A stretch of 64,000 nucleotides of DNA, taken from assembly GCA_018971105.1 (NCBI GenBank), contig JAGWVB010000002.1:513-64512 (forward strand), in the 5' to 3' direction. Every line of letters begins with the position of its first letter. Within the stretch, counting starts at the first letter, position 1. The translations under genes were made by a program, and so were the position numbers. The notes under the pieces are model-generated. The model had not been told where the DNA came from, searched no databases, and saw nothing but the letters and a program-made list of their open reading frames with translations. Shown piece after piece: positions 1,903 to 17,641 of the stretch. This stretch comes from Burkholderiales bacterium. GTDB lineage: Bacteria > Pseudomonadota > Gammaproteobacteria > Burkholderiales > Burkholderiaceae_C.

Positions 1903-4461
1903 CTAGACGGCCCCGGCGCGCCGGAGCGTCTCGACCACCGGGCGCCGCAGCACCTCGCGCAGGCCCCACCAGCCCGCCGCCTGCGCCAGCAGCGCGCCGG
2001 CGACGATGCCCGCCAGCGGCACCCAGGGCGAAGGGTGCCAGCTGAAATCGAAGACCCGGTGCGCGAGCAGCCAGCCCAGCACGACCGCGGCGACCGATGC
2101 CAGCAGGCCCGCGAGCGCTCCGACGCCGAGCAGCTCGGCGCGCTGCACCTGCGCCAGCAGCCGGGCGCCGGCACCCAGCGCGCGCATCACCGCGAACTCG
2201 CGCGCGCGCGCCTCGCGCGTCGCGCTCACCGCGGCGAACAGCACGACGAGGCCGGCGGCGAGCGTGAAGGCGAACAGGAACTGGACCGCCGCGATGACCT
2301 GGTCGAGCACCGCCTGCACCTGGGCGATGGTGGCCGAGACGTCGATGTCGGTGATGTTCGGGAAGCGGCGCGCCAGCGAAGCGTCGAAGCCATGCTGCGG
2401 CGGCGCGCGGAAGGCGCTGATGTAGCTCAGCGGCAGGTCGTCCATGCGCGCGAGCGGGAAGAGGACGAAGAAGTTCGGCCGCATCGATCCCCAGTCGACC
2501 TTGCGCAGGCTGGTGATGCGGCCCTCGCGGAACTGGCCCGCGATGTCGAAGCGCAGCGTGTCGCCGAGCTTCAGGCCGAGTTCCTGCGCCAGCCCCTGCT
2601 CGACCGAGATCGCGCCCGCCTCGTCGGCGACCCAGCGCCCCGCGACGACGTCGTTCTTCGGCGGCAGCACGGCGCTGTGGCTGAGGTTGAACTCGCGTTC
2701 GACGAGGCGGCGCGCACGCGCGTCGGCGTAGTTCGAGGCCCGCACCGGGGCGCCGTCGACGGCGACCAGGCGGCCGCGGATCATCGGGTACCAGTCGTAG
2801 CGCGCGACGCCGCCGGCGGTCAAGGCGGCGCGGAAATCGCCGGCCTGGTCGGGCTGGATGTTGATGACGAAGCGGTCGGGCGCGTCGGGCGGCGTCGCCT
2901 CGCGCCAGCTCGCGATGAGGTCGGTGCGCAGCAGGATCAGCAGCACGAGCGCGAGCAGACCGACCGCCAGCGCCGAGACCTGGAGCACGGCATAGGCCGG
3001 CCGCGCACCGACCTGGCGCGTCGCCAGCAGCAGCCAGCGCGGCGCGCCGGCGGCCGGCACGAGGCGCAGCATCAGCCGCACGGCGGCCCAGGACGCGACG
3101 GCGAAGAAGGCGACCGCGGCGGCGAAGCCGCCGACCGCGATCAGCCCCATGCGCAGGTCCGAGGTCGCCGCCAGCAGCAGCGCGACGAAGCCGACGAGGC
3201 CCGCGGCCAGCACCGCGAGCGAGGCCGGCGCGAGCGCGCCGACATCGCGCCGGATCACGCGCAGCGGCGGCACGCGCGCGAGCTGCAGCACCGGCGGCAG
3301 CCCGAAGGCCAGCAGCAGCGTCATGCCGATGCCGAGGCCGAACAGCGCCGGTCCCGGCCCCGGCGGCGGCAGGTCGACGGCGACGAGTCCGGCAAGCAAC
3401 GCGACGAACACGCCATGCAGCGCGAGGCCGACGAGCAGGCCGAGCCCGCTCGCGGCGAGGCCGACGAGGCCGAACTCGATCGCGTAAGCGCCGGCGATGC
3501 GGCGCTGCGAGAGCCCGAGCACGCGCAGCATCGCGCAGCCGTCGAGCCGGCGCGCCGCGAAGTCGCGCGCCGCGATCGCCACCGCCACCGCGGCCAGCAG
3601 CGCCGCCAGCAGCGCGACGAGATTGAGGAACTTGGTGGCGCGGTCCAGCGCCTGCTTCATCTCGGGGCGGCCGCTCTCGACGCTCTGGATGCGGATGCCG
3701 CGCAGCGATTGCGCGCGCACGCGCTCGCGGCACCAGTCGGTGTAGCGGCGCACGGTGGCGTCGCCGCGCGCCACGCTCCACCCCGCCGGCGCGGCGACGG
3801 CCAGGCGGTAGCCGATGCGGCTGGCCGGCTGCACCAGACCGGTGGCCGGCAGGTCGGTCAGCGCCAGCATCACGCGCGGCGCGAAGCTCGTGAAGCCGGT
3901 GCCGCGGTCGGGCTCGACGACGATGAGGCGGGTGATCTTCAGCGTCGCGTCGCCCAGCTGGAGCGTGTCGCCGAGCCGCAGCTGCAGCGCGTCCAGCAGC
4001 GAGGCGTCGACCCAGGCCTGGCCCGGCGGCGGCGCGGCGGCCAGCACCTGCACCGGGCCGTCGGGCCGCTGGCGCAACTGCATGCGTCCGCGCAGCGGGT
4101 AGGCGGCGTCGACCGCCTTGACGGCGACGAGCCGGGTCGCGCCACCGCGGTCGTCGGGGGCACGCGCCATGCTCGGGAAGGTGGCCGAGTCGCTTGTGCG
4201 CAGGCCGAGCGCGCGCGCCTGGGCCGCGAATGCGGGCGGCGTGACCTCGTCGCTCTCGATCACGGCGTCGCCGCCGAGCAGCTGGTACGAATCGCGCTGC
4301 AGGCCGGCATCGAGCCGGTCGGCGAAGAAGCCGACGGCCGTCAGCGCGGCCACCGCGAGCAGCACGGCGAAAACGAGCAGGCGCAACTCGCCGGCGCGCA
4401 GGTCGCGCCGCGTCTGGCGCCAGGCCAGCAGGGCGATCGAAGGGGGGCGTGGATGGGACAT
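1903..4461 (-). CDS. YbbP-like FtsX-family ABC transporter permease
   Basis: 852 aa, duplicated FtsX architecture; LAWRQTRRDLRAGELRLL, FVINIQPDQ, EREFNLS, RKVDWGSMRPNFFV. Confidence 0.9.
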   Translation of the reverse strand: MSHPRPPSIALLAWRQTRRDLRAGELRLLVFAVLLAVAALTAVGFFADRLDAGLQRDSYQLLGGDAVIESDEVTPPAFAAQARALGLRTSDSATFPSMARAPDDRGGATRLVAVKAVDAAYPLRGRMQLRQRPDGPVQVLAAAPPPGQAWVDASLLDALQLRLGDTLQLGDATLKITRLIVVEPDRGTGFTSFAPRVMLALTDLPATGLVQPASRIGYRLAVAAPAGWSVARGDATVRRYTDWCRERVRAQSLRGIRIQSVESGRPEMKQALDRATKFLNLVALLAALLAAVAVAIAARDFAARRLDGCAMLRVLGLSQRRIAGAYAIEFGLVGLAASGLGLLVGLALHGVFVALLAGLVAVDLPPPGPGPALFGLGIGMTLLLAFGLPPVLQLARVPPLRVIRRDVGALAPASLAVLAAGLVGFVALLLAATSDLRMGLIAVGGFAAAVAFFAVASWAAVRLMLRLVPAAGAPRWLLLATRQVGARPAYAVLQVSALAVGLLALVLLILLRTDLIASWREATPPDAPDRFVINIQPDQAGDFRAALTAGGVARYDWYPMIRGRLVAVDGAPVRASNYADARARRLVEREFNLSHSAVLPPKNDVVAGRWVADEAGAISVEQGLAQELGLKLGDTLRFDIAGQFREGRITSLRKVDWGSMRPNFFVLFPLARMDDLPLSYISAFRAPPQHGFDASLARRFPNITDIDVSATIAQVQAVLDQVIAAVQFLFAFTLAAGLVVLFAAVSATREARAREFAVMRALGAGARLLAQVQRAELLGVGALAGLLASVAAVVLGWLLAHRVFDFSWHPSPWVPLAGIVAGALLAQAAGWWGLREVLRRPVVETLRRAGAV

Positions 4462-4562
4462 GACCGGACCTTAGCCGAATTGCGGCTTGCCCGGCGCGGC
4501 GCAGAATCCTGCGTGCAACGCCGCTGAACGCGCCCTCCTGCGGCCGATGTTCCAATCCAGGC

Positions 4563-5414
4563 ATGGACACGCTGCCCCCGCTCTTCCTCTCGCATGGCTC
4601 GCCGATGATCGCGCTCGAACCGCGCGCGGCGGGTGCCTTCATCGCGCGCCTGGGACCGGCGATCGACGCCGCCTTCGGGCGCCCGCGCGCCATCCTCGCC
4701 ATCTCGGGTCACACGCTGACGCGCGAACCGGCGTTGCTGGCCGCGCCGCGCCACGAGGCGGTGTACGACTTCGGCGGCTTCGACCCGCGGCTCTACGAGA
4801 TGCGCTACGACGCGCCCGGCGCGCCGGCGCTGGCCGGCCGCGTCGCCGAGCGGCTGCAGTCCGTCGGCCTGCCGGCGCACCGCGTCGACGCGGGTGGCCT
4901 CGACCATGGCATCTGGACGGCGCTGAAATATGCCTACCCGGGCGCCGACGTGCCGGTGCTGCCGCTGGGCTGGCCGCCGAACTGGGCCCCGCGCCGGCTG
5001 TTCGAGCTCGGCGCGGCGCTGGCGCCGCTGGCCGACGAGGGCGTGCTCATCGTCGGCACCGGCGGCATCACGCACAACCTGCGCCGCATCTTCGCCGGCG
5101 GCCTGCGCGTCGACGCCGACCAGGCCGTCACGCCCGAGAGCCTGGCGTTCCGCGACTGGTTCGCCGCGCGCACGGCGGCGGCTGACTGGGAAGCCCTGTT
5201 CGACTACCGGACCCTTGCTCCCCACGCGGTGCTGATGCACCCGACCGACGAGCATCTGCTGCCGTTCTTCGTCGCCGCCGGTGCCGGGGGCAATGGTCCG
5301 GCGCTGCGCATCCACGCCAGCCACACGCATGGCGACCTCGGCATGGACGCCTACGCCTTCGGCGCGACGGCCGCCCGGCTCGCCGCAGCCACGGCCGAGA
5401 CGGTCGCGGCCTAG
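4563..5414 (+). CDS. Extradiol ring-cleavage dioxygenase, LigB/DODA (YgiD-like) family
   Basis: LFLSHGSPM, GLDHGIW, GTGGITHNL, HPTDEHLLP motifs. Confidence 0.9.
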   Translation: MDTLPPLFLSHGSPMIALEPRAAGAFIARLGPAIDAAFGRPRAILAISGHTLTREPALLAAPRHEAVYDFGGFDPRLYEMRYDAPGAPALAGRVAERLQSVGLPAHRVDAGGLDHGIWTALKYAYPGADVPVLPLGWPPNWAPRRLFELGAALAPLADEGVLIVGTGGITHNLRRIFAGGLRVDADQAVTPESLAFRDWFAARTAAADWEALFDYRTLAPHAVLMHPTDEHLLPFFVAAGAGGNGPALRIHASHTHGDLGMDAYAFGATAARLAAATAETVAA

Positions 5415-5456
5415 CAGCCGTCCGGCTCGCCGCCGGGCGCGGTCGAGCCGCGGCCC

Positions 5457-6515
5457 TCAGGCCGAAGCGGCGGGGGCGGCGGCGAAGGCGGCGTCCAGCG
5501 CCGCGAACCACCCGGCCTTGCGTTCCGACGTCGCGAACGCGGCCTCGAAGCCGTTGCGCGCGAGCCGGTAGGCGTGCTCGCGCCCGAGCTGCGGCAGCGC
5601 GTCGAAGGCGGCGAGGTAGTTGTCGACGAGGTAGCCGCCGAAATAGGCCGGGTCGTCGCTGTTGACCATCGCGCACAGCCCGGCTTCGAGCAGCGCCGGC
5701 AGATTGTGGTCGGCCATCTTGTCGAACACGCGCAGCTTGACGTTGGACAGCGGGCAGACCGTCAGCGGCACGCGCGCGGCGGCCAGGCGCTGCACGAGGG
5801 CCGCGTCCTCGAGGCAGCGCACGCCATGGTCGATGCGCTCGACATGCAGGCGATCCAGCGCACTGCGGATGTAGGCGGGCGGCCCCTCCTCGCCAGCATG
5901 GGCCACGAGGTGCAGCCCGAGCTCGCGGCAGCGCGCGTAGACGCGCTCGAACTTCTCGGGCGGGTGGCCGCGCTCGCTGCTGTCCAGGCCGATGCCGATG
6001 AAATGCTGCCGGTGGGGCAGCGCCTGCTCGAGCGTCGCGAAGGCCGCCTCATCGCTCAGGTGGCGCAGGAAGCACAGGATGAGGTCGGCGCTGATGCCGA
6101 GCTCGGACTCGGCGCGGCGGCAGGCGCGGGCCAGGCCGAGGATCACGGCTTCGATGGGCACGCCGCGCTCGGTGTGCGTCTGCGGGTCGAAGAAGATCTC
6201 GGCGCGCACCACGTGGTCGGCGGCGGCACGCTCGAAATAGGCCCAGGCCATCGCAAAGAAGTCTTCCTCCTTCAGCAGCACGCTGGCGCCGGCGTAATAG
6301 ATGTCGAGAAAGCTCTGCAGATCGGTGAAGGCGTAGGCGGCGCGCAGCGCCTCGACGCTGGCGTAGGGCAGCGCGACGCCGTTGCGCGCCGCGAGCGCGA
6401 AGATCAGCTCGGGTTCGAGCGAGCCTTCGATGTGGATGTGCAGCTCGGCCTTGGGCATCGCGCGCAGCAGGGCGTGCAACGAGGAACGATCGGTGGCGGT
6501 TCGTGGGTTCGTCAT
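5457..6515 (-). CDS. add: Adenine/adenosine deaminase
   Basis: MPKAELHIHIEGSLEP, VAHAGEEG, ERIDHG, TVCPLSN, NSDDPAYFGG; start placed at MTNPR (6515). Confidence 0.92.
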   Translation of the reverse strand: MTNPRTATDRSSLHALLRAMPKAELHIHIEGSLEPELIFALAARNGVALPYASVEALRAAYAFTDLQSFLDIYYAGASVLLKEEDFFAMAWAYFERAAADHVVRAEIFFDPQTHTERGVPIEAVILGLARACRRAESELGISADLILCFLRHLSDEAAFATLEQALPHRQHFIGIGLDSSERGHPPEKFERVYARCRELGLHLVAHAGEEGPPAYIRSALDRLHVERIDHGVRCLEDAALVQRLAAARVPLTVCPLSNVKLRVFDKMADHNLPALLEAGLCAMVNSDDPAYFGGYLVDNYLAAFDALPQLGREHAYRLARNGFEAAFATSERKAGWFAALDAAFAAAPAASA

Positions 6516-8718: not shown

Positions 8719-9381
8719 TTACGGCGCCAGCCGTCGCTGCAGGGCCCGCGCCAGCCGCGCGGCCGCCTCGTCCCAGCCCACGTCGACGCCGCAGCGCCGC
8801 AGGTCCACCGTCTCGAGCCCGGCGTAGCCGCAGGGGTCGATGCGGTCATAGGGTTCGAGGTCCATCGCGACGTTCAGCGCCACGCCGTGGTACGCGCGGT
8901 GGTTCGTGACCTTGATGCCGAGCGCGGCGATCTTGCCCAGTCCGGCGAAGGGATGGCCGGCGTCGACCTCGAGCAGCGCGTGCGAGCGCGGGTCGGCCAG
9001 CCGCACATAGATGCCCGGCGCGCTGCGCACGCGATGGCCGACGACGCCCCAGGTCCATAGCGTGTCGATCACCGCCTCCTCGATGCGGTACACATATTCC
9101 TTGACGTAGATGCCCAGCCGCCGCAGGTCGACGAGCGGGTAGGCGACGACCTGGCCCGGGCCGTGGTAAGTGACCTGGCCGCCGCGGTCGGTGCGCACGA
9201 CCGGGATGCCGCCGGGCGCCAGCACATGGGCGTCGCGCCCGGCGATGCCCTGGGTGTAGACGGGATCGTGCTCGACGAGCCAGAGTTCGTCGGCGCTGTC
9301 GGCGCCGCGCGCCGCGGTGTGGGCGCGCATCGCGGTTTCGACTTCGAGGTAGGGCCGCCGGCCCAGCGTCAGGACATGCAT
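8719..9381 (-). CDS. lipB: Octanoyltransferase
   Basis: [38 protein letters not shown]; directly upstream of lipA. Confidence 0.97.
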
Positions 9382-9430
9382 CGGACTGCGCAGTCTACGG
9401 TCCCGGCCGCGCGCCGTCTCGCGCCGCGGC

Positions 9431-11569
9431 CTACAGATTCCCCGCGAACAGCCTGCCGATGAAGAGATCCTTGAAACTGTTCGCTTCGTCGATGCCGAGC
9501 CGTTCCAGATAGGCCCGCGGCGCCTCGCGTCCCTCCCAGAGGCTGCGCAGTGCCAGCGTCACGAGTTCGACCGGATGATGGCCAGCCTGCTGCAATCGTT
9601 TGAGGGCAGCGACAATATGCTGCTCGTCAGCGTTGAGGTCGGTACCGAAGGGATAAGGCGGCAGCCAACCGGCATCGATTCCAGGCTGCAGCCGCGCGCG
9701 CAAGGAGGCGGGCGTGTTGGGCCAGCGCTGCGGCGGCAGTTCCCAGCCCGGCTCGAGCTTGCCGGCGGCGCGCGCACGCGTGATCAGTTCCTCCTGGAAG
9801 CGCGCGTCGGCGACCGCGATCAGGCGCTTGACGACCTCGCCGTCGGTGTGCCCGCGCAGGTCGGCGACGCCGTATTCGGTGACGACGAGGTCGCGCAGGT
9901 GGCGCGGTATGGTCTCGTTGCCGCCGCCGTCCCAGACGATGTTGCTGGCCGGTCCGTCCGGGCCCTCGCGCGTCGAGCGCAGCATCAGGATGGAGCGCGC
10001 GTCGGGCAGCGCATGGGCCATCGCGACGAAGTTGTACTGGCCGCCGACGCCCGAGACGACGCCGCCGTCGGCCAGCGTGTCCGAGATCGCCGCGCCCAGC
10101 AGCGTGACCTTCATCGTCGTGTTGATGAAGCGGGCCTTGACGCGCTGCGCGCGCCTGAGCGCGCTGTCGCGCTGCGCCGCACCGTCGAGCTGGTTGACGA
10201 AATCGATGCGCGTCATCTCGACGCGCGAGCGCTCGCCTGCGGCCAGGCCGCGCAGGCGCTCGTAGAAGGCCTGCGGGCCGATGAAGAAGCCGGCCGTGAG
10301 CACGACGCCGCCGGCCAGGCGCGGCCCGAGCAGGGTCGGGCCGATGGCGGCCAGCACCTCGGGGTCGCGCAGGTCGTTGGGCAGTTGCATGCCGTCGGGG
10401 GCGACGAGGCAGTCCTCGCTCAGGCGCACGCCGCGCTGGAACACGCCGTGGCGGATCAGGTACGCGACATCGTCGGCCGTCAGCGGCGAGCGGATGCGGC
10501 CGGCCTGCAGCAGCGCCTGCAGCGTCGCCGCGCTGACCGCCGCCGGTGCGATGTCGCCGCGGTTGATCAGCTGCTGCAGCACGAGGTCGCCGTAGACCTC
10601 GCGCCGCACGATGCCGGCGTCGATCAGCTCGAGCAGGCCGGCGCCGAACATCTCCGAGCAGCCATAGAGGCCGCGGTAGAAGCGTCCGAGCTCGCGGCCC
10701 TGCGCGCCTCCCGGGCTGAGCCCGTCGACGAGCCGGCGGAAGCCGGCGTTCTCGCGTTCGCGCAGGATGAGCGAGCGCGCCACGGCGTCGCCGAGCGAGC
10801 CGATGCCGATCTGCAGCGTGCCGCCGTCGGCGACGAGACTGGCCGCCTGCAGGCCGATCGCGTAATCGGCGTCGGCGACCTCGGTGTTGGGCGGCCCGAA
10901 AAGCCGGTGCGTGCCCTCGGGCGCGTCGACGACGAGGTCGTAGAACATCGGCGCGACCTCGGCGCCGCCGCCCATATAGGGTAGTTCTCGGTTCACGACC
11001 GCGACCTTGTACAGCGGGGCGCCGGCGGCGGCGCAGCGCTCGGCGATCTCGAACGAGAGATCCGGGTTGCTCGACATCGACAGCCGCCAGCGCCCGCCCG
11101 CGCGCGTCTCGGCCACCGCCTGTGCGATCGCATTCACGCCCTGCAGCACCATGTCGCGGGCGACGAAGGTGTAGTTGGAGGCGATGAACGAGCGCTGCGC
11201 CGCGTCGTGGCCGAGATAGGCGCCGGAGCGGAAGAAGAACTCGCGCACCTCGATGTTCGGCGGCAGGCCGGCGCCGCGCGCATCGGCGAGATAGTCGAGC
11301 TCGGGATAGTCGCCGAACAGGCGCTCGACCAGCGGCTCGAGGAAATGGCGCTCGAGCTCGCTGCGGCCCTGCGGCCGCTCGAGCGACAGCGCGGTGACGA
11401 TGACGAGGCGGCGCTCGGGCCGCGCGCGGATGCGGCGGTAGAGCGCGTTGACGAAGCGGTTGGGCTTGCCGATGCCCAGCGGGAGCCCGAGCACGATGGT
11501 GCCGGGCACGGCCGCCAGCAAGCCATCGACCGCGGCTTCCATCGAATCGACGACGCGCGGCTGGGCCAT
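9431..11569 (-). CDS. Acetyl-CoA hydrolase/transferase family protein (long form)
   Basis: [46 protein letters not shown]; start at MAQPR. Confidence 0.85.
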
Positions 11570-11693
11570 GCTGATCTTTCCTCGGATAGGTGCCCGAGTC
11601 TGCGCCCTGCGCGGCGTTCCTGCACGCCGCGCCCGCAATGGCCTGCGGTCCCGCTAGGCCAAAAGCGGGAAGACAGCTTGCTGTGCTAGGCGG

Positions 11694-13949
11694 CTAGAAG
11701 ATGGCCTTGAACTGCAGACCGTAGGTGCGCGGATCGTTGATGAAGCCGGTCAGGTTGTTGAAGTCGATCGCGCCGGTGACCCGGATCTGGTTCGTCAAGT
11801 TGCGCACGTAGAGCGCGAGATCGTACTTGCCGTTGTTCCAGTCGTAGCCGGCGCGCAGCCCGCCCTCGGTCAGCGGCTTGCCGGTGAACTCGATCGAGCG
11901 GTAGAGGAAGAAGTCGACGCTGCTGCGGTAGGTCCAGTCGGTGTAGACGTAGAACTCGTTGCCGCCGCCGGTCGGGATCGCGTAGCGGGCGTTGAGGTTG
12001 CCGGTCCAGCGCGGCGCGTTCGGCAGCTGGTTGCCGTTCACGTAGACCTCGCCGCCGCCGCCGGGGACGGCCGGGCTGGTCACCTTGCAGCCGCCGCCGC
12101 AGCCGGCCACGGTCAGGTTCGGGTCGTGGATCCTGGCGTCGTTGAGGCTGGTGCTGAGCGAGAGCGTCAGATTGTCCAGCGGCAGCAGGTCCAGGCTGAG
12201 CTCGAAGCCCTGACCGATGACCTTGTTCGCGCTCTTGACGGTATTGCTGTTGCCGCCGCCGCCGACCTCGGTGAGCTGGAGGTGGTTGACGTCGTAGCGG
12301 TAGACGGCCGCCGAGAGCCGGCCGCGGCGTTGCCAGAATTCGCTCTTGATGCCGGCCTCGTACGAGGTGATCGTCTCGGGGCCGGCCTGGCTGAGCGGGC
12401 CGAACTCGCCTGCCGGCAGCGTCGTCGACGCGCGGAAGCCGGTGCCGATGCGCGCATAGACGTTGATGTCGGGCGCGATCGCGTACAGCGCCGAGAGATC
12501 CCAGGTCGTCTTCGTGTCGCTGGTGTCGGCGGCGACGCCGTTGCTCGTGTCCAGCACCTGGCCGCCCACCGCCGGCACATAGCTGTAGAGCTGCTTCTTG
12601 TCACGCGTGTAGCGCAGCCCCGCGCCGACCTTGAAGCGTTCGGTGACCTGGTACTTGGCCTCGCCGAACAGCGCCCAGGCCTGGTTCGCCTGATGCGTCT
12701 CCGAGTACACCGGCACCCCGGTGCCATAGGGCGGCGCGTTCGAATAGTCGATGTTCTCCCAGGTGTAGCGCTCGTCGAAGGCGTAGAGGCCGGCCTGCCA
12801 GCTCAGCGGCCCCGGCTGGCGCGACTCGAGCCTGAACTCCTGCGTCAGCTGGCGATGGCCATGCAGCGCGTCCGAGGTCTCGTCGGGGAACAGCGCGACA
12901 TTGAGCGCGCCGGTCGGGTAGGCGTAGATGCTGCCGCCGTCGACATCGCCGCGGCTGAAGGGTCGCACGGTCTCGATCGCGGTGATCGAGTGCAGGTCGG
13001 CGCCCGCCAGCGACCACTTCAGCCGGGCATTGGCACCGGTGGAGGTCACATGCTGGGCGTTGACGCCGTCGATCGACATGCGGTCGGGGTTGAAGCCGGC
13101 GATCAGGTTGTTGGTGCCGGGCTGGATGATGCCGGCGCGGAACAGCCGCGGGCTGCCGTTGAGGTCGCGGTGGTGGATGTTGAACAGCGCGCTGAAGGCC
13201 TGCGACGGCTGGTACAGCGCCTGCAGGCGCACGGCGAGATCCTCGTAGCCCTCGGTGGCCGGGGTCTGCCCGGCGGGGTCGGTGTTGTGGACCCAGTCCT
13301 TGCGGTGCTGGTCCTGGGCCGAGATGCGCATCGCCCAGTCCGGCCCGAGGGCGATGTTGCCGGCCCCTTCGGCGTTGATCGTCCCCAGGTTGCCGAAGCC
13401 GAGGCTGAAGTAGGCGTCGCGCTTGTGCGACGGCGCGACCGAATCGAACTTGACCACGCCGGCCGGCGTGTTGCGGCCGAACAGCGTGCCCTGGGGTCCG
13501 GCCAGCACCTCGACGCTCTGGACGTCGAAGACCGGGAATCCCTTGAGGATCGGGTTTTCCTGGACCACGTCGTCGTAGACCAGCGATACCGGCTGCGAGG
13601 CGTTGAGGTGGAAGTCGGTGTTGCCGTAGCCGCGCAGGTAGAAGCGCGGGAAGGCGCGTCCGAACGACGACTCGATGTTCAGGCTCGGCACGCGGCCGGC
13701 GAGGTCGCGCACGTCCTGGCCGCCGGCGCTCAGCGCGTCCATCAGGTCGCCGCTGACGACGCTGATCGAGCCCGGCACGTCCTGGATGTTCTCGACCCGG
13801 CGCTCGGCCGTGACGGTGATGGTCTGGAGCTGGGTCGGCGCCGTCTGGGCCGCGGCGCCCAGCTGCAGCGAGGCCAGCGCGGCGGCGGCGAGCACTGGGC
13901 GAACCGGCAGCGCCGGCCGCGGCTGACTTGGGGAACGAGACATGACCAT
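11694..13949 (-). CDS. TonB-dependent outer-membrane receptor
   Basis: Signal peptide, TonB-box-like LQTITVTA, plug motif GPQGTLFGRNTPAGVV, C-terminal PRTYGLQFKAIF. Confidence 0.95.
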   Translation of the reverse strand: MVMSRSPSQPRPALPVRPVLAAAALASLQLGAAAQTAPTQLQTITVTAERRVENIQDVPGSISVVSGDLMDALSAGGQDVRDLAGRVPSLNIESSFGRAFPRFYLRGYGNTDFHLNASQPVSLVYDDVVQENPILKGFPVFDVQSVEVLAGPQGTLFGRNTPAGVVKFDSVAPSHKRDAYFSLGFGNLGTINAEGAGNIALGPDWAMRISAQDQHRKDWVHNTDPAGQTPATEGYEDLAVRLQALYQPSQAFSALFNIHHRDLNGSPRLFRAGIIQPGTNNLIAGFNPDRMSIDGVNAQHVTSTGANARLKWSLAGADLHSITAIETVRPFSRGDVDGGSIYAYPTGALNVALFPDETSDALHGHRQLTQEFRLESRQPGPLSWQAGLYAFDERYTWENIDYSNAPPYGTGVPVYSETHQANQAWALFGEAKYQVTERFKVGAGLRYTRDKKQLYSYVPAVGGQVLDTSNGVAADTSDTKTTWDLSALYAIAPDINVYARIGTGFRASTTLPAGEFGPLSQAGPETITSYEAGIKSEFWQRRGRLSAAVYRYDVNHLQLTEVGGGGNSNTVKSANKVIGQGFELSLDLLPLDNLTLSLSTSLNDARIHDPNLTVAGCGGGCKVTSPAVPGGGGEVYVNGNQLPNAPRWTGNLNARYAIPTGGGNEFYVYTDWTYRSSVDFFLYRSIEFTGKPLTEGGLRAGYDWNNGKYDLALYVRNLTNQIRVTGAIDFNNLTGFINDPRTYGLQFKAIF

Positions 13950-14083
13950 GGCGACTCCTGGAAGGGTTAAGTCCTTGTGACTTCCATGATGCCGTCAAGG
14001 CCGCGCGGATGGCTTCGAGCCCCGAGAAACGTCATGCGAGTGACGCATGGGCGCAACATTCGAGGGGTAGATCGAACGAAACA

Positions 14084-14112
14084 CGCCCGAAGGCCGACAC
14101 GGCCTTCGGGCG
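14084..14112 (-). terminator. Rho-independent terminator of the small peptide gene
   Basis: Perfect 12-bp stem CGCCCGAAGGCC / GGCCTTCGGGCG with 5-nt loop, followed on the minus strand by TGTTTCGTTC, 26 nt after the peptide stop. Confidence 0.75.
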
Positions 14113-14138
14113 CGGCAAGCGCAGGTCGAGTTAAGAAA

Positions 14139-14291
14139 TCACTCGAGGTAGACCGTCTGAGTGGGCCTGACGGTCGCCTTTTCCAGATAGACCGTTTGCC
14201 CACCCGAAACCTGGCGCAGCTGCTCCAGGCTCAATTCCGGAATGGTCTTCTGGGTCTCGGTAGGTTGTGCAATCTGCTTCGAGTTCGTCAT
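14139..14291 (-). CDS. 50-aa double-glycine-leader precursor peptide (bacteriocin/RiPP-like): MTNSKQIAQPTETQKTIPELSLEQLRQVSGG-QTVYLEKATVRPTQTVYLE
   Basis: Hand translation; AGGAG RBS 7 nt before ATG; leader ELSLEQLRQVSGG; the two QTVYLE copies differ only at synonymous positions; own terminator; below the ORF-track size cutoff. Confidence 0.85.
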   Translation of the reverse strand: MTNSKQIAQPTETQKTIPELSLEQLRQVSGGQTVYLEKATVRPTQTVYLE

Positions 14292-14298
14292 TCAATAA

Positions 14299-14303
14299 CT
14301 CCT
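14299..14303 (-). promoter_or_regulatory. Shine-Dalgarno site of the peptide gene
   Basis: AGGAG on the minus strand, 7-nt spacer to ATG at 14291. Confidence 0.75.
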
Positions 14304-14485
14304 GTTTATCGTGAGTAAATGCGCCACGAGTGCGCAAGCCACGATCCCATGCCTCGACAGGGAATTGAAGCTGTAAACCTTCGCAGGGAGGACTTCCGCC
14401 TATTCCCGGCGGGCCGTTCGGGTCAACATTCCCCGGACGAGGTGCTTCTGTCGTATCTTGCACGGTTTCATGGCAGAAAGACCCG

Positions 14486-15739
14486 ATGGATCATGTGCCC
14501 GGCCGCAGCCATATCCGCTTGACTTCGCATCCGGGCCAGGGCCCGTCGGGCGCGCCGCCCCTGCACTGGGGCGCGAGCGATCCGCTGCCGCGCGGCCCGG
14601 TCGTCGGCACCACCGCCGACCGCGGCCAACGCAATGTCATCGGCACGCACAGCGGCAGCTACGGCGTCTATCGTGCACTCGCGGTGGCGGCCGGCAACCT
14701 CGGCCGCGGGCACCGCGCCGACCTCACCGACACCGCACCCACCGACCTCGTCGGGCCCTACCCGCAATGGGGCGATGCGGCCCGCATCGTCGCCATCGAC
14801 CCCTGGGGCGCCAGCGTGCAGCAGGTCTACGCCGGGTACCTCGCCGCCGGCTACGACATCCGGCCGACGATCGCCGTCACCAAGGCCCATGTCCACCTGC
14901 CCGAGATCCGCCAGGCGATCGCCTTCCAGCGCCTGGCCATCGACGGCCGCATCCTGCTCGAGGACGCCAGCGCCGCCGTCACCAAGGTCGCGATCGAGCC
15001 GGTCTGGTGGCTGCCCGGGGTCGCCGCGCGCTTCGGCGTCGGCGAGGCCGAGCTGCGCCGCGCGCTGTTCGAGGAAACCGGCGGCATGTACCCCGAACTC
15101 GTCACGCGCAGCGACCTCGAGGTGTTCCTGCCGCCGATCGGCGGCCAGACCCTCTATGTCTTCGGTGACATCCGCGACCTCGCCCGCCCCGAGGTGACGC
15201 TGACCGCGCGCGTGCACGACGAGTGCAACGGCTCGGATGTCTTCGGCAGCGACATCTGCACCTGCCGCCCTTACCTCACGCATGCGATCGAGGAATGCAT
15301 CCGCGGCGCCCAGGCGGGCGGCGTCGGCCTCATCGCCTACAGCCGCAAGGAGGGCCGGGCGCTGGGCGAGGTCACCAAGTTCCTCGTCTACAACGCGCGC
15401 AAGCGCCAGCCCGGCGGCGACCGCGCCGACAAGTACTTCATGCGCACCGAATGCGTCGCCGGCGTGCAGGACATGCGTTTCCAGGAACTGATGCCCGACG
15501 TGCTGCACTGGCTCGGCATCCGCAGGATCCACCGCCTCGTGAGCATGAGCAACGACAAGTACGACGCCATCGTCGGCAGCGGCATCGAGGTCGGCGAGCG
15601 CGTCAAGATCCCCGACGCCCTGGTGCCCGCCGACGCCCGCGTCGAGATCGAGGCCAAGATCGCCGCCGGCTACTTCACCGACCGCAGCGTTCCCCGCGCC
15701 TCCGATCTCGCACGGGTCCAGGGACGCGCCCTTGAGTGA
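14486..15739 (+). CDS. GTP cyclohydrolase II-like protein with N-terminal extension (URC1/Urg1 type)
   Basis: RNVIGTHSGSYGVYRALAVA N-domain; RVHDECNGSDVFGSDICTCRPYL, RKEGRALGEVTKFLVYNARK. Confidence 0.9.
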   Translation: MDHVPGRSHIRLTSHPGQGPSGAPPLHWGASDPLPRGPVVGTTADRGQRNVIGTHSGSYGVYRALAVAAGNLGRGHRADLTDTAPTDLVGPYPQWGDAARIVAIDPWGASVQQVYAGYLAAGYDIRPTIAVTKAHVHLPEIRQAIAFQRLAIDGRILLEDASAAVTKVAIEPVWWLPGVAARFGVGEAELRRALFEETGGMYPELVTRSDLEVFLPPIGGQTLYVFGDIRDLARPEVTLTARVHDECNGSDVFGSDICTCRPYLTHAIEECIRGAQAGGVGLIAYSRKEGRALGEVTKFLVYNARKRQPGGDRADKYFMRTECVAGVQDMRFQELMPDVLHWLGIRRIHRLVSMSNDKYDAIVGSGIEVGERVKIPDALVPADARVEIEAKIAAGYFTDRSVPRASDLARVQGRALE

Positions 15740-16970
15740 AGCCGCCATCCATGTCCTGCGCGGGCTGCACGACCCGGCGACGATACGCAGGCGCTGCCGC
15801 GCCATCCTCGCCGCCGTCGATGACGGCGTGAGCCCGCATTTCAGGATCGATCGCAGCGGCCTGCCGGCGCTCGCCGACCGCGTCGCGGCGCTGACGCGCA
15901 GCCGCTACCCCGACCTCGCGGTGCCGCTGCACAGCCGCTGGCGCCATTTCGAGGCCGGCGGCATCGACCGGCCGCGCCAGCTCGACGCCCTGCTCGCCGG
16001 CCGCAGCGCCGCCGAGGCCGCGCGCGCGCGCTTCGACCTGACCCTGGTCAGCGTGCTGCTCGACGCCGGCGCCGGCCCCGCCTGGTCCTATGCCGAGCCC
16101 GGCAGCGGCCTCACGCTCGCGCGCTCCGAGGGCCTGGGGGTGGCGAGCTGGCATGGCTTCCTCGGCGGGCGCTTTTCGGCCGACCCGGCCGACCCGCTGC
16201 GCGCCGATGCGGCGCGGCTGGAGGTGATCGGCCCCGGCGCCTTGCGCGAACTGTTCCAGGCCGGCGGCGCGAATCCGCTCGTCGGGCTCGACGGGCGTGC
16301 CGGCCTGCTCGCGCGGCTGGGCACGGTGCTGCGCGGCGAAGCCGGCAGCGTCACCGCGCGCCCGGCGCTGATCTACGACCGCCTCACCGACGGCGGCCTG
16401 CGCACCGAGGTCAGCGCCGCCGACCTGCTGGGCGAGCTGCTGCGCACGCTGGCGCCGATCTGGGGCGGCGGCAGCCGCATCCGCGGCCTGCCGGCCGGCG
16501 ATGTCTGGCCGCACCGCTGGGCGGGCGCGGCCACCGGCGGCGGCGAGGACGGCGGCACCGGCGGCTACGTGCCCTTCCACAAGCTGAGCCAATGGATAGC
16601 CTACTCGCTGGTCGAGCCGCTGCAGCGCAGCGGCGTTCGGGTGCGCGGCATCGAGGCCCTCACGGCGCTGCCCGAATACCGCAACGGCGGCCTGCTGATC
16701 GACGGCGGCGTCGTCGTGCCGCGCGCCGCCCACGCGCTCCAGCGCCCCTGGCGGCCGGGCGACGAGTTCGTCGTCGAATGGCGCGCGCTGACGGTGGCGC
16801 TGCTCGACGAGCTCGCGCCGCTGGTGCGCGAGCGACTCGACGCCCCGGACCTGCCGCTGGCCTGCATCCTCGAAGGCGGCACCTGGGCCGCCGGGCGCGA
16901 GATCGCGCGCGAGCGGCGCCGCGACGGCGCGCCGCCGCTGAAGATCGAATCCGACGGCACCCTGTTCTGA
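15732..16970 (+). CDS. URC4/Urg3 family (DUF1688) protein
   Basis: HSRWRHFEAGG, VSVLLDAGAG, RSEGL, FHKLSQW, LPEYRNGGLL, VEWRALTV, LEGGTW; overlaps upstream gene. Confidence 0.88.
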   Translation: MSEAAIHVLRGLHDPATIRRRCRAILAAVDDGVSPHFRIDRSGLPALADRVAALTRSRYPDLAVPLHSRWRHFEAGGIDRPRQLDALLAGRSAAEAARARFDLTLVSVLLDAGAGPAWSYAEPGSGLTLARSEGLGVASWHGFLGGRFSADPADPLRADAARLEVIGPGALRELFQAGGANPLVGLDGRAGLLARLGTVLRGEAGSVTARPALIYDRLTDGGLRTEVSAADLLGELLRTLAPIWGGGSRIRGLPAGDVWPHRWAGAATGGGEDGGTGGYVPFHKLSQWIAYSLVEPLQRSGVRVRGIEALTALPEYRNGGLLIDGGVVVPRAAHALQRPWRPGDEFVVEWRALTVALLDELAPLVRERLDAPDLPLACILEGGTWAAGREIARERRRDGAPPLKIESDGTLF

Positions 16971-17005
16971 ACCGGCGGCCGAAAGCCTAACGTCGAAAGC
17001 GAGCG

Positions 17006-17641
17006 ATGAGCGCAGCCGAAGTCCACGTCATCACCCACCCGCTGGTCCAGCACAAGCTGACGCTGATGCGGCAGAAGGACCTCAGCACGGCCAGCTTCAG
17101 GCGCCTGCTGCACGAGATCGCGATGCTCATGGCCTACGAGGTCACGCGCGAGATGCCGACGCAGCTGATCGAGATCGAGACCCCGCTCGAGACGATGCGC
17201 TCGCCGGTGATCGAGGGCCGCAAGACCGTCTTCGTCGTCATCATGCGCGCCGGCAGCGGCTTGCTCGACGGCATGCTCGAGATCGTGCCCGGCGCGCGCG
17301 TCGGCCATGTCGGCCTCTACCGCGACCCGAAGACGCTGGTCGCGATCGAGTACTACTTCAAGATGCCGCAGGACATGGCCGAACGCGACGCCATCGTGCT
17401 CGACCCGATGCTGGCCACCGGCAACTCGGCCGTCGCCGCGGTGGAACGGCTGAAGGAGACGCGGCCGCGCTCGATCCGCTTCGTCTGCCTGCTCGCCGCG
17501 CCCGAGGGGCTGCGCAACTTCCACGCCCATCACCCCGGCGTGCCGGTCTACGCGGCCGCCGTCGACCGCGAACTCGACGGCCACGGCTACATCCGGCCCG
17601 GGCTGGGCGACGCCGGCGACCGGCTCTTCGGCACCAAGTGA
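17006..17641 (+). CDS. upp: Uracil phosphoribosyltransferase
   Basis: [44 protein letters not shown]. Confidence 0.97.

Follow-up and report, generated by a model that had tools for sequence, protein, structure and literature searches.

A candidate exported peptide with a conserved double-glycine leader and a hypervariable core in uncultured Burkholderiales

The locus described here lies in a 64,000-nucleotide stretch of DNA (hereafter the window) from an uncultured Burkholderiales bacterium of mine drainage and freshwater. On the minus strand, a small ORF occupies the 536-bp intergenic region between a divergent URC-type operon and a gene for a TonB-dependent receptor. This ORF runs from ATG 14291 to TGA 14139 and reads MTNSKQIAQPTETQKTIPELSLEQLRQVSGGQTVYLEKATVRPTQTVYLE. 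Its parts and immediate surroundings are:

14139..14291, minus strand: precursor peptide ORF, 50 aa plus stop (sequence and translation)
14199..14291, minus strand: leader of 31 aa, made up of invariant MTNSKQ, variable residues 7-16 and invariant IPELSLEQLRQVSGG (residues 17-31)
14142..14198, minus strand: hypervariable core of 19 aa, QTVYLE-KATVRPT-QTVYLE (alignment to REEB380)
14299..14303, minus strand: Shine-Dalgarno sequence AGGAG, 7-nt spacer to the ATG, unchanged in 6/6 aligned sequences
14072..14114, minus strand: intrinsic-terminator-like hairpin (14082-14114) with T-rich tail (sequence, folding)
11694..13949, minus strand: TonB-dependent receptor gene, co-oriented, starting 190 nt past the peptide stop (Plug and barrel domains)
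14304..14485, no strand assigned: conserved 5' region common to the divergent URC operon, with presumed promoters (88% identity between two species)

A preliminary description of this DNA had reported the ORF, its ribosome-binding site, a terminator and a pocket of lower GC. The translation was reproduced as first written, AGGAG was found at 14303-14299, and GC is 0.55-0.62 across the intergenic region as against ~0.70 in the flanks. The terminator had been given as a perfect 12-bp hairpin 26 nt downstream. A hairpin with a T-rich tail is indeed present, but the figures need correction: the structure at 14114-14082 has 15 pairs, 12 of them G-C, around a 3-nt loop, and it begins 24 nt past the stop. 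It folds at -35.8 kcal/mol (z = -5.2) and is followed by a modest T-rich run, TTTCGTTCG. The ORF had also been called unannotated, which holds for the annotation track supplied and not elsewhere, where the protein and a homologue have already been gene-called: the homologue in the metagenome-assembled genome (MAG) Burkholderiales bacterium REEB380 is listed at NCBI as hypothetical protein KGN16_13445, and the protein collection that we searched contains the exact window protein and two 52-aa homologues. Upstream of the gene, the conserved 5' region is less diverged between the window and REEB380 than the synonymous sites of the neighbouring genes (pS 0.17 for the cyclohydrolase and 0.23 for the TonB receptor, both with dN/dS of 0.1-0.2). 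We found no sigma-70 consensus in this region, and a search of 13800-14600 against Rfam (E <= 1) returned no riboswitch or other family.

The surrounding genes are of recognizable types. The URC-type operon (14486-17641, plus strand) encodes a GTP cyclohydrolase II with a GTP_CH_N domain, a DUF1688 protein and a uracil phosphoribosyltransferase; it points away from the peptide gene, and its conservation extends to REEB380 and to same-genus relatives. The TonB-dependent receptor has no specific NCBIfam equivalog, and similarity to a solved structure (FyuA) is confined to its plug domain. Between the receptor gene and lipB-lipA lies a gene for a 735-aa protein (9431-11638, minus strand), likewise conserved in REEB380, with a C-terminal acetyl-CoA hydrolase/transferase domain and ~450 N-terminal residues that match nothing in Pfam.

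Homologues of the peptide gene were recovered from a small number of sources. The REEB380 copy (JAGWTU010000022) sits among neighbours that match those of the window (i.e., the URC operon, the peptide gene, the TonB receptor gene, the acetyl-CoA hydrolase-like gene, lipB and lipA), and a second 52-aa homologue lies on a short Logan contig, L024. Frame, start codon and ribosome-binding site are the same in both full-length homologues, each of which is flanked by the URC cyclohydrolase gene on one side and the TonB receptor gene on the other. Partial alleles came from contigs of some eight further metagenome runs, covering freshwater, freshwater sediment, pond, subsurface and microbial mat, and all of them retain the 5' region and leader; most of the additional alleles are incomplete reconstructions from Logan contigs of low depth. 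All runs containing the locus are DNA metagenomes.

Several lines of evidence make it very likely that the ORF is a real gene for a small exported peptide, a conclusion drawn from comparative sequence data. The peptide frame is the only one in the 536-bp intergenic region that is open in all alleles. The window ORF has GC1/2/3 values of 0.55/0.40/0.76, and the order GC3 > GC1 > GC2 (0.76-0.81, 0.55 and 0.40-0.46, respectively) recurs in all three full alleles in the peptide frame only; the untranslated regions on either side have no codon-position GC periodicity. The three full-length sequences (window, REEB380 and L024) all retain MTNSKQ and IPELSLEQLRQVSGG, and the syntenic homologues keep the frame despite a 6-nt (two-codon) indel and ~54% core divergence. 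Between the window and REEB380, the codons of IPELSLEQLRQVSGG (residues 17-31) have dN = 0 and dS = 0.30. The first five variable sites in this segment (P18, E19, L20, Q24 and G31) are all synonymous (5/5, P ~0.0016), and the last set of sequences added two more of the same kind, I17 and L22. Furthermore, the two QTVYLE copies within the window core (14181-14198 and 14142-14159) differ at 4 sites, all of them synonymous. The preliminary description had named a short-query homologue search as a check, and had stated that its reading would be contradicted by a lack of transcription or translation together with a lack of homologues that retain the GG leader and the frame. Homologue searches recovered the syntenic REEB380 gene with frame and GG leader kept, and the changes in IPELSLEQLRQVSGG are synonymous only. 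An overlapping antisense ORF of 113 aa (13977-14318, plus strand) was considered and discarded, as it is broken in REEB380.

The strand of evidence that concerns RNA rather than protein is the hairpin. REEB380 has a hairpin at the same place with a different sequence (GCCCGCAG..CTGCGGGC and then TTTTCTTTC), so the structure has been kept by compensatory change. The order of ORF, terminator and receptor gene resembles that of a leader-peptide attenuator, and one could suppose that the ORF acts in cis, as a uORF or RNA element regulating the TonB receptor gene, and that its peptide has no function. We consider this very improbable. The ORF has no regulatory codon runs, the terminator forms in three alleles and no competing antiterminator was found; the Rfam search gave no match; such an element would not be expected to show constraint at the protein level in the GG motif and the QTVYLE copies; and orthologues of the receptor occur in relatives without the ORF. 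In the window allele, the core RNA itself also folds into a strong hairpin (GGGUGGGC..GCCCACUC; 14142-14205, minus strand), in the segment that encodes both QTVYLE copies. This second hairpin is confined to the window allele and is not conserved in other alleles.

The receptor orthologues bear on the origin of the locus. About nine same-genus species have one (52-59% identity), and several of these genes are divergent neighbours of the URC cyclohydrolase gene, at a distance of 1.9-4.6 kb. In the two such gaps that were scanned, no peptide gene was found. The receptor thus appears to be ancestral at the URC locus and the peptide gene to be novel to the lineage of the window's genome and REEB380. 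Both scanned gaps (loci L067 and L069, from relatives G017 and G006) contain a gene for a PhyH-family dioxygenase, and the one in G017 also contains a gene for a 963-aa AAA/TPR regulator; these genes are absent from the window, where the peptide gene sits in a shortened spacer.

We found that the N-terminal part of the precursor has the features of a double-glycine leader. Hydrophobic residues occupy positions -15 (I), -12 (L), -7 (L) and -4 (V) and are followed by GG (I PE L SLEQ L RQ V SGG), which is the pattern that defines such leaders, and the motif is invariant in all recovered alleles. Profile NF033456 gave a weak match of 18.8 bits (E = 1.1e-3) against a cut-off of 24, and a Pfam search of the peptide matched no family. 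AlphaFold2 placed a helix at residues 22-28 with low confidence (pLDDT 63) and was otherwise uninformative. The view that this is a GG-type leader, taken from the preliminary description, is strengthened by the invariance of the motif and by the presence in the genome of a catalytically intact C39 ABC transporter together with an HlyD-family gene.

Searches for relatives of the peptide indicated a very narrow distribution. No homologue was found among 60 relatives or among 36 same-genus species representatives; among 185,579 species genomes the only one was that of REEB380; and the exact motif had no match in JGI metagenome contigs. An HMM search of 1.84 billion representatives returned the peptide's own cluster and one loosely similar GG peptide, P0009. 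Profile and homologue searches thus agree with the earlier impression that the core is unlike any described peptide. The peptides form a new, narrow and lineage-restricted family of orphan GG-leader peptides. To our knowledge, nearly all double-glycine peptides described from Gram-negative bacteria are either 5-10-kDa microcins of Enterobacteriaceae or modified RiPPs. The gene described here encodes a much smaller and apparently unmodified product, in uncultured Burkholderiales of mine drainage and freshwater.

The window's genome (4.8 Mb, 98% complete) contains exactly one Peptidase_C39 match, on contig C61. This CvaB-like peptidase-containing ABC transporter (PCAT; G000:C61 6203-8311) has 702 aa with Peptidase_C39 (113 bits), ABC_membrane and ABC_tran domains, and its catalytic motifs are present (Cys motif QTEAAECGLACL and His region HWDLSHFVVL). 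An HlyD-family gene (4950-6206) lies directly 5' of it, and further upstream is a gene for a LuxR-type autoinducer-binding regulator (3720-4592). The scanned parts of the window contain no C39, HlyD or ABC exporter gene. The PCAT lies on another contig, so the peptide gene lacks the adjacency to an exporter gene that is common, though not required, for such precursors.

Between the LuxR-type regulator and the HlyD-family gene, C61 carries a small GG-leader ORF of its own (L027 4649/4715-4879, plus strand), which reads MKSLLNLVRRTQVAQPLKAPQLLPVADLKKVGGG up to the predicted cut and LPRVGGLTGNCTVSPSGVTS after it. Its cleavage region (..LLPVADLKKVGGG before LPRVGGLTGNCTVSPSGVTS) ends in DLKKVGGG, and the REEB380 version has ..SDLKKVSGG followed by LPRAGGLT..; both endings are close to the EQLRQVSGG of the studied peptide. 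Amino-acid identity of this ORF to REEB380 is 57%, as against 86% identity of the flanking DNA, so it too appears to be fast-evolving. A loose regex scan of the whole genome in six frames returned no other convincing GG-leader ORF. The C61 exporter thus probably has its own neighbouring substrate, to judge from gene order. Since the PCAT lies on another contig and has this candidate substrate, we treat processing of the studied peptide in trans as an assumption; export in trans by the C61 PCAT is plausible given the similar cleavage regions.

REEB380 also encodes PCATs. One of them, on its contig C10 (genome G061, ~9289-11985), adjoins an ATP-grasp gene (TIGR04187-like, 198 bits) in what is likely a graspetide cluster. 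A second locus, on C30 (~72000-75000) and ~12 kb from the peptide gene, combines a GT41 glycosyltransferase with an HlyB-like ABC transporter that has a weak C39-like domain. Neither locus has a counterpart in the window's genome.

RaxX of Xanthomonas is a useful comparison for a Gram-negative PCAT substrate. Its GG-type leader is removed by a PCAT, it is tyrosine-sulfated by an adjacent sulfotransferase, and the rax cluster includes the exporter. RaxX and the studied peptide are alike as small GG-leader peptides of Gram-negative proteobacteria, secreted or presumed so, with cleavage by a PCAT; they differ in that sulfation and export of RaxX are encoded in one cluster, and the two peptides have no sequence similarity. 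Modification of the core by a distantly encoded enzyme would make the studied ORF a RiPP precursor, for instance with Thr-Glu/Asp ester cross-links or an aromatic cyclophane. The core positions that are conserved among alleles (T at +2, an aromatic residue at +4, D or E at +6, a central Pro and a C-terminal Glu) could serve such chemistry, and in REEB380 an ATP-grasp gene adjoins a PCAT. Nevertheless, the 64-kb window contains no maturase, and the only radical SAM enzyme nearby is LipA, which is placed there by synteny with REEB380. The window's 98%-complete genome has no TIGR04187-type ATP-grasp at E <= 1e-3, which led us to reject the graspetide form of this reading (T..E esters). In addition, the aromatic residue at +4 varies among Y, F and W. 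We regard a RiPP precursor as improbable and the product as probably linear and unmodified.

In marked distinction to the leader, the core is hypervariable. The window and REEB380 share 88% of their nucleotides in the 5' region and 86% in the leader but 46% in the core. Other core alleles include QTIFVDTIRILPAPTGITMAE, MTIWVDTKVAPPTPNGITMAE and AIVYFEKAVA.., and core length varies between 19 and 21 aa (~2.2-2.3 kDa; unmodified masses are 2240 Da for the window allele, A, and 2288 and 2273 Da for alleles B and C, respectively). The cores are Cys-free, slightly acidic and not membrane-active-looking.

Comparison of closely related strains revealed that the core can be exchanged on its own. L024 and REEB380 differ by 24 mismatches in 1257 nt, and 23/24 of these fall within 98 nt at the peptide gene (binomial P = 7e-25). 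In run X12, the L024-type allele is the only one present (depth 18.5), and between the strain that carries it and REEB380 there are 2 SNPs, both at third positions, along 1747 nt of the receptor gene and ~4 SNPs across 9.4 kb upstream, a span that includes a histidine kinase and a NarL-type regulator. Strains with a swapped core thus differ otherwise by a handful of SNPs over ~12 kb. Inside the patch, divergence reaches dS = 0.63 and dN = 0.39, and this core dS exceeds the dS of 0.20-0.27 measured for neighbouring genes between the two species. The alleles must therefore be old and must have been introduced by short-patch recombination rather than by a recent mutational burst. The same pattern appeared in other lineages. 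The freshwater lineage X16 is ~9% different in the 5' region and leader, yet its core begins as in REEB380, with a single, synonymous difference in 30 nt; the freshwater allele AIVYFEKAVA.. groups with the QTVYLEKATV class of the window, the differences being partly synonymous. Together, these data indicate that balancing, frequency-dependent selection acts on the product of 19-21 residues and that recombination has moved old allele classes between backgrounds. The swapping of the core between otherwise identical strains suggests that the peptide serves in rivalry or recognition among them.

Variation so concentrated could also come from a chance ORF in a fast-evolving or recombining spacer, or from a target of a diversity-generating retroelement (DGR). 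The very narrow family, the lower GC than in the flanks and the single reverse transcriptase in each genome (the window's genome and REEB380) would fit such an origin. We excluded a DGR target because neither genome contains a template repeat or second copy of the core, and because the changes are not adenine-specific but include synonymous third-position changes and whole-codon replacements. As for a chance ORF, all alleles keep the frame, the start, the ribosome-binding site and the GG motif, with synonymous-only change. We thus give this pair of explanations hardly any weight.

We favour the following account, which we think has somewhat better than even prospects of being right as a whole: the gene encodes a lineage-restricted GG precursor whose polymorphic product is exported by a PCAT and acts between cells. 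The precursor would be translated from its own ribosome-binding site, on a transcript that would mostly end at the conserved hairpin. An amphipathic leader helix (I-15, L-12, L-7, V-4 and GG) would be recognized by the C39 domain of the CvaB-like PCAT on C61, which would cut after Gly31 and export the product by a route of PCAT, HlyD and outer-membrane channel. The cut after G31, export in trans and the biological role are all inferred here. The product would be a linear, Cys-free peptide of 19-21 residues and ~2.2 kDa that acts between cells. Its core polymorphism would be held by balancing, frequency-dependent selection, with allele classes that predate the species split and are moved by short-patch recombination. 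One feature that counts against this account is the leader, which at 31 aa is longer than the 15-18 aa typical of microcins and falls short of the NF033456 cut-off; the tiny size of the family and the incomplete state of most additional alleles weigh in the same direction.

Class II microcins are a natural candidate for what such a product could be. Their mature proteins measure 5-10 kDa, their signals are 15-18 aa long, and a gene for a small membrane immunity protein lies next to theirs (PMC12219008); microcins use CirA or FhuA together with TonB (PMC12219008). A classical member of this class would be taken up through a TonB-dependent receptor of the target, with an immunity protein protecting the producer. 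The end of the leader is CvaC-like (SVSGG in MccV, QVSGG here), the genome holds a CvaAB-like exporter, and a TonB receptor gene is adjacent; as with MccV/CvaC and CvaAB (PMC12219008), the setting is a Gram-negative cell with a PCAT that has catalytic Cys and His and an HlyD-family adaptor, and class II microcins share the biological link of peptide to TonB-dependent receptors. They differ in that the gene studied here is apart from the exporter, has no immunity gene and encodes a core without sequence similarity to theirs. Sizes of signal and mature peptide fall outside the class as well, with a core of 2.2 kDa behind a 31-aa leader. The 536-bp intergenic region contains no second conserved ORF on either strand that could encode immunity, and swaps of the core leave the receptor essentially unaltered. 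We therefore consider a classical class II microcin distinctly unlikely. PADLOC defence-system models gave no match.

A peptide pheromone of the ComC/BlpC type, with a specific receptor and with allele classes that act as pherotypes, would account for a different part of the evidence. ComC/CSP, BlpC and plantaricin A are linear peptides of 17-25 aa that are released by a C39 ABC transporter and have an adjacent, co-varying histidine kinase receptor, and streptococcal comC has a conserved leader, a variable core and old alleles. The studied gene likewise combines a GG leader with an unmodified-looking core of 19-21 aa, and its leader is conserved while its core varies in old alleles; a LuxR-type regulator is encoded at the PCAT locus and a histidine kinase/NarL-type pair 4-5 kb from the peptide gene. 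ComC/CSP-type pheromones are thus alike in their short linear core, conserved leader and old, recombining allele classes. However, they belong to Gram-positive bacteria and have an adjacent co-varying kinase, whereas here the host is a Betaproteobacterium and nothing co-varies within ~12 kb. We know of no peptide quorum-sensing system of the ComC kind that is established in Betaproteobacteria. The polymorphic short core in discrete old classes is what a pheromone would have; a linked co-varying receptor is missing, since the kinase and the TonB receptor stay unchanged when the core is swapped. Specifically, strains with core alleles B and C have essentially the same histidine kinase/NarL-type regulator pair and the same TonB receptor. 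Short-patch recombination would also part an unlinked specific receptor from its ligand. A pheromone with a specific receptor is, in our judgement, unlikely.

What the peptide does between cells can be narrowed by the same observations. A short recombination patch alters the peptide alone in an otherwise identical genome, which disfavours functions that need a matched partner. Because no linked receptor or immunity gene co-varies, we rank a peptide that antagonizes or interferes with particular strains or species, with no dedicated immunity, above a pheromone with a specific receptor, and hold the former as a tentative possibility. Since the core is small, slightly acidic and not membrane-active-looking, and no immunity gene was found, antagonism is a guess. 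We also considered a strain-specific recognition or signalling peptide, i.e., a 'pherotype' system in Burkholderiales with PCAT export under LuxR-type control followed by uptake through the co-transcribed TonB receptor or by homotypic action, and judge it doubtful. Within that scheme, uptake by way of T+2, the aromatic residue at +4, D/E at +6 and the C-terminal E is an equally doubtful proposal. Its alternative, homotypic self-assembly by beta-strands, in which the peptide alone must vary, is similarly far from probable.

The adjacent receptor is essentially unchanged between strains with swapped peptide core, and this lack of co-variation speaks against a pairing of receptor and ligand that is specific to the allele. 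That the two genes are neighbours may be accidental or may have to do with shared regulation. Mimicry of a TonB box was tried as a link between the two and rejected: scored against a matrix derived from 7 receptors of the window's genome, the best core 9-mer reached 6.8 bits (allele B) and the other alleles at most 3.3, as against 24-31 for real boxes (the box of the adjacent receptor is LQTITVTAER).

The population data give the locus its interest. Its population-genetic signature is very sharp, with a 98-bp patch that carries nearly all strain differences and with allele classes older than the species, and it identifies the product of ~20 residues as what frequency-dependent selection acts on directly in natural communities. 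In textbook models of bacteriocins and pheromones, a gene for immunity or for a receptor is linked to the peptide gene; its absence here is a departure from them. Chemical synthesis of peptides this short is feasible, which opens their activity and allele specificity to direct testing even without a cultured host.

Parts of the leader were also seen in other sequences. In run X18 (a pond metagenome), a 265-nt contig aligned to L020:10070-10103 over a 34-nt stretch homologous to codons 24-35 (QLRQVSGGQTI). This stretch sits in a different small ORF with its own AGGAG and a leader of 12 aa (MIID-QLRQVSGG), which suggests that the cleavage-site module is present in other peptide genes. The loosely similar peptide P0009 (L028 608-766, Logan SRR22091216) reads MKNLDRLKKQNVRSVESRKAPAALSLDQLRQVSGG before the predicted cut and NTYFHPNAGNDVCVLTN after it; its contig is short, and a hairpin follows the ORF there too.
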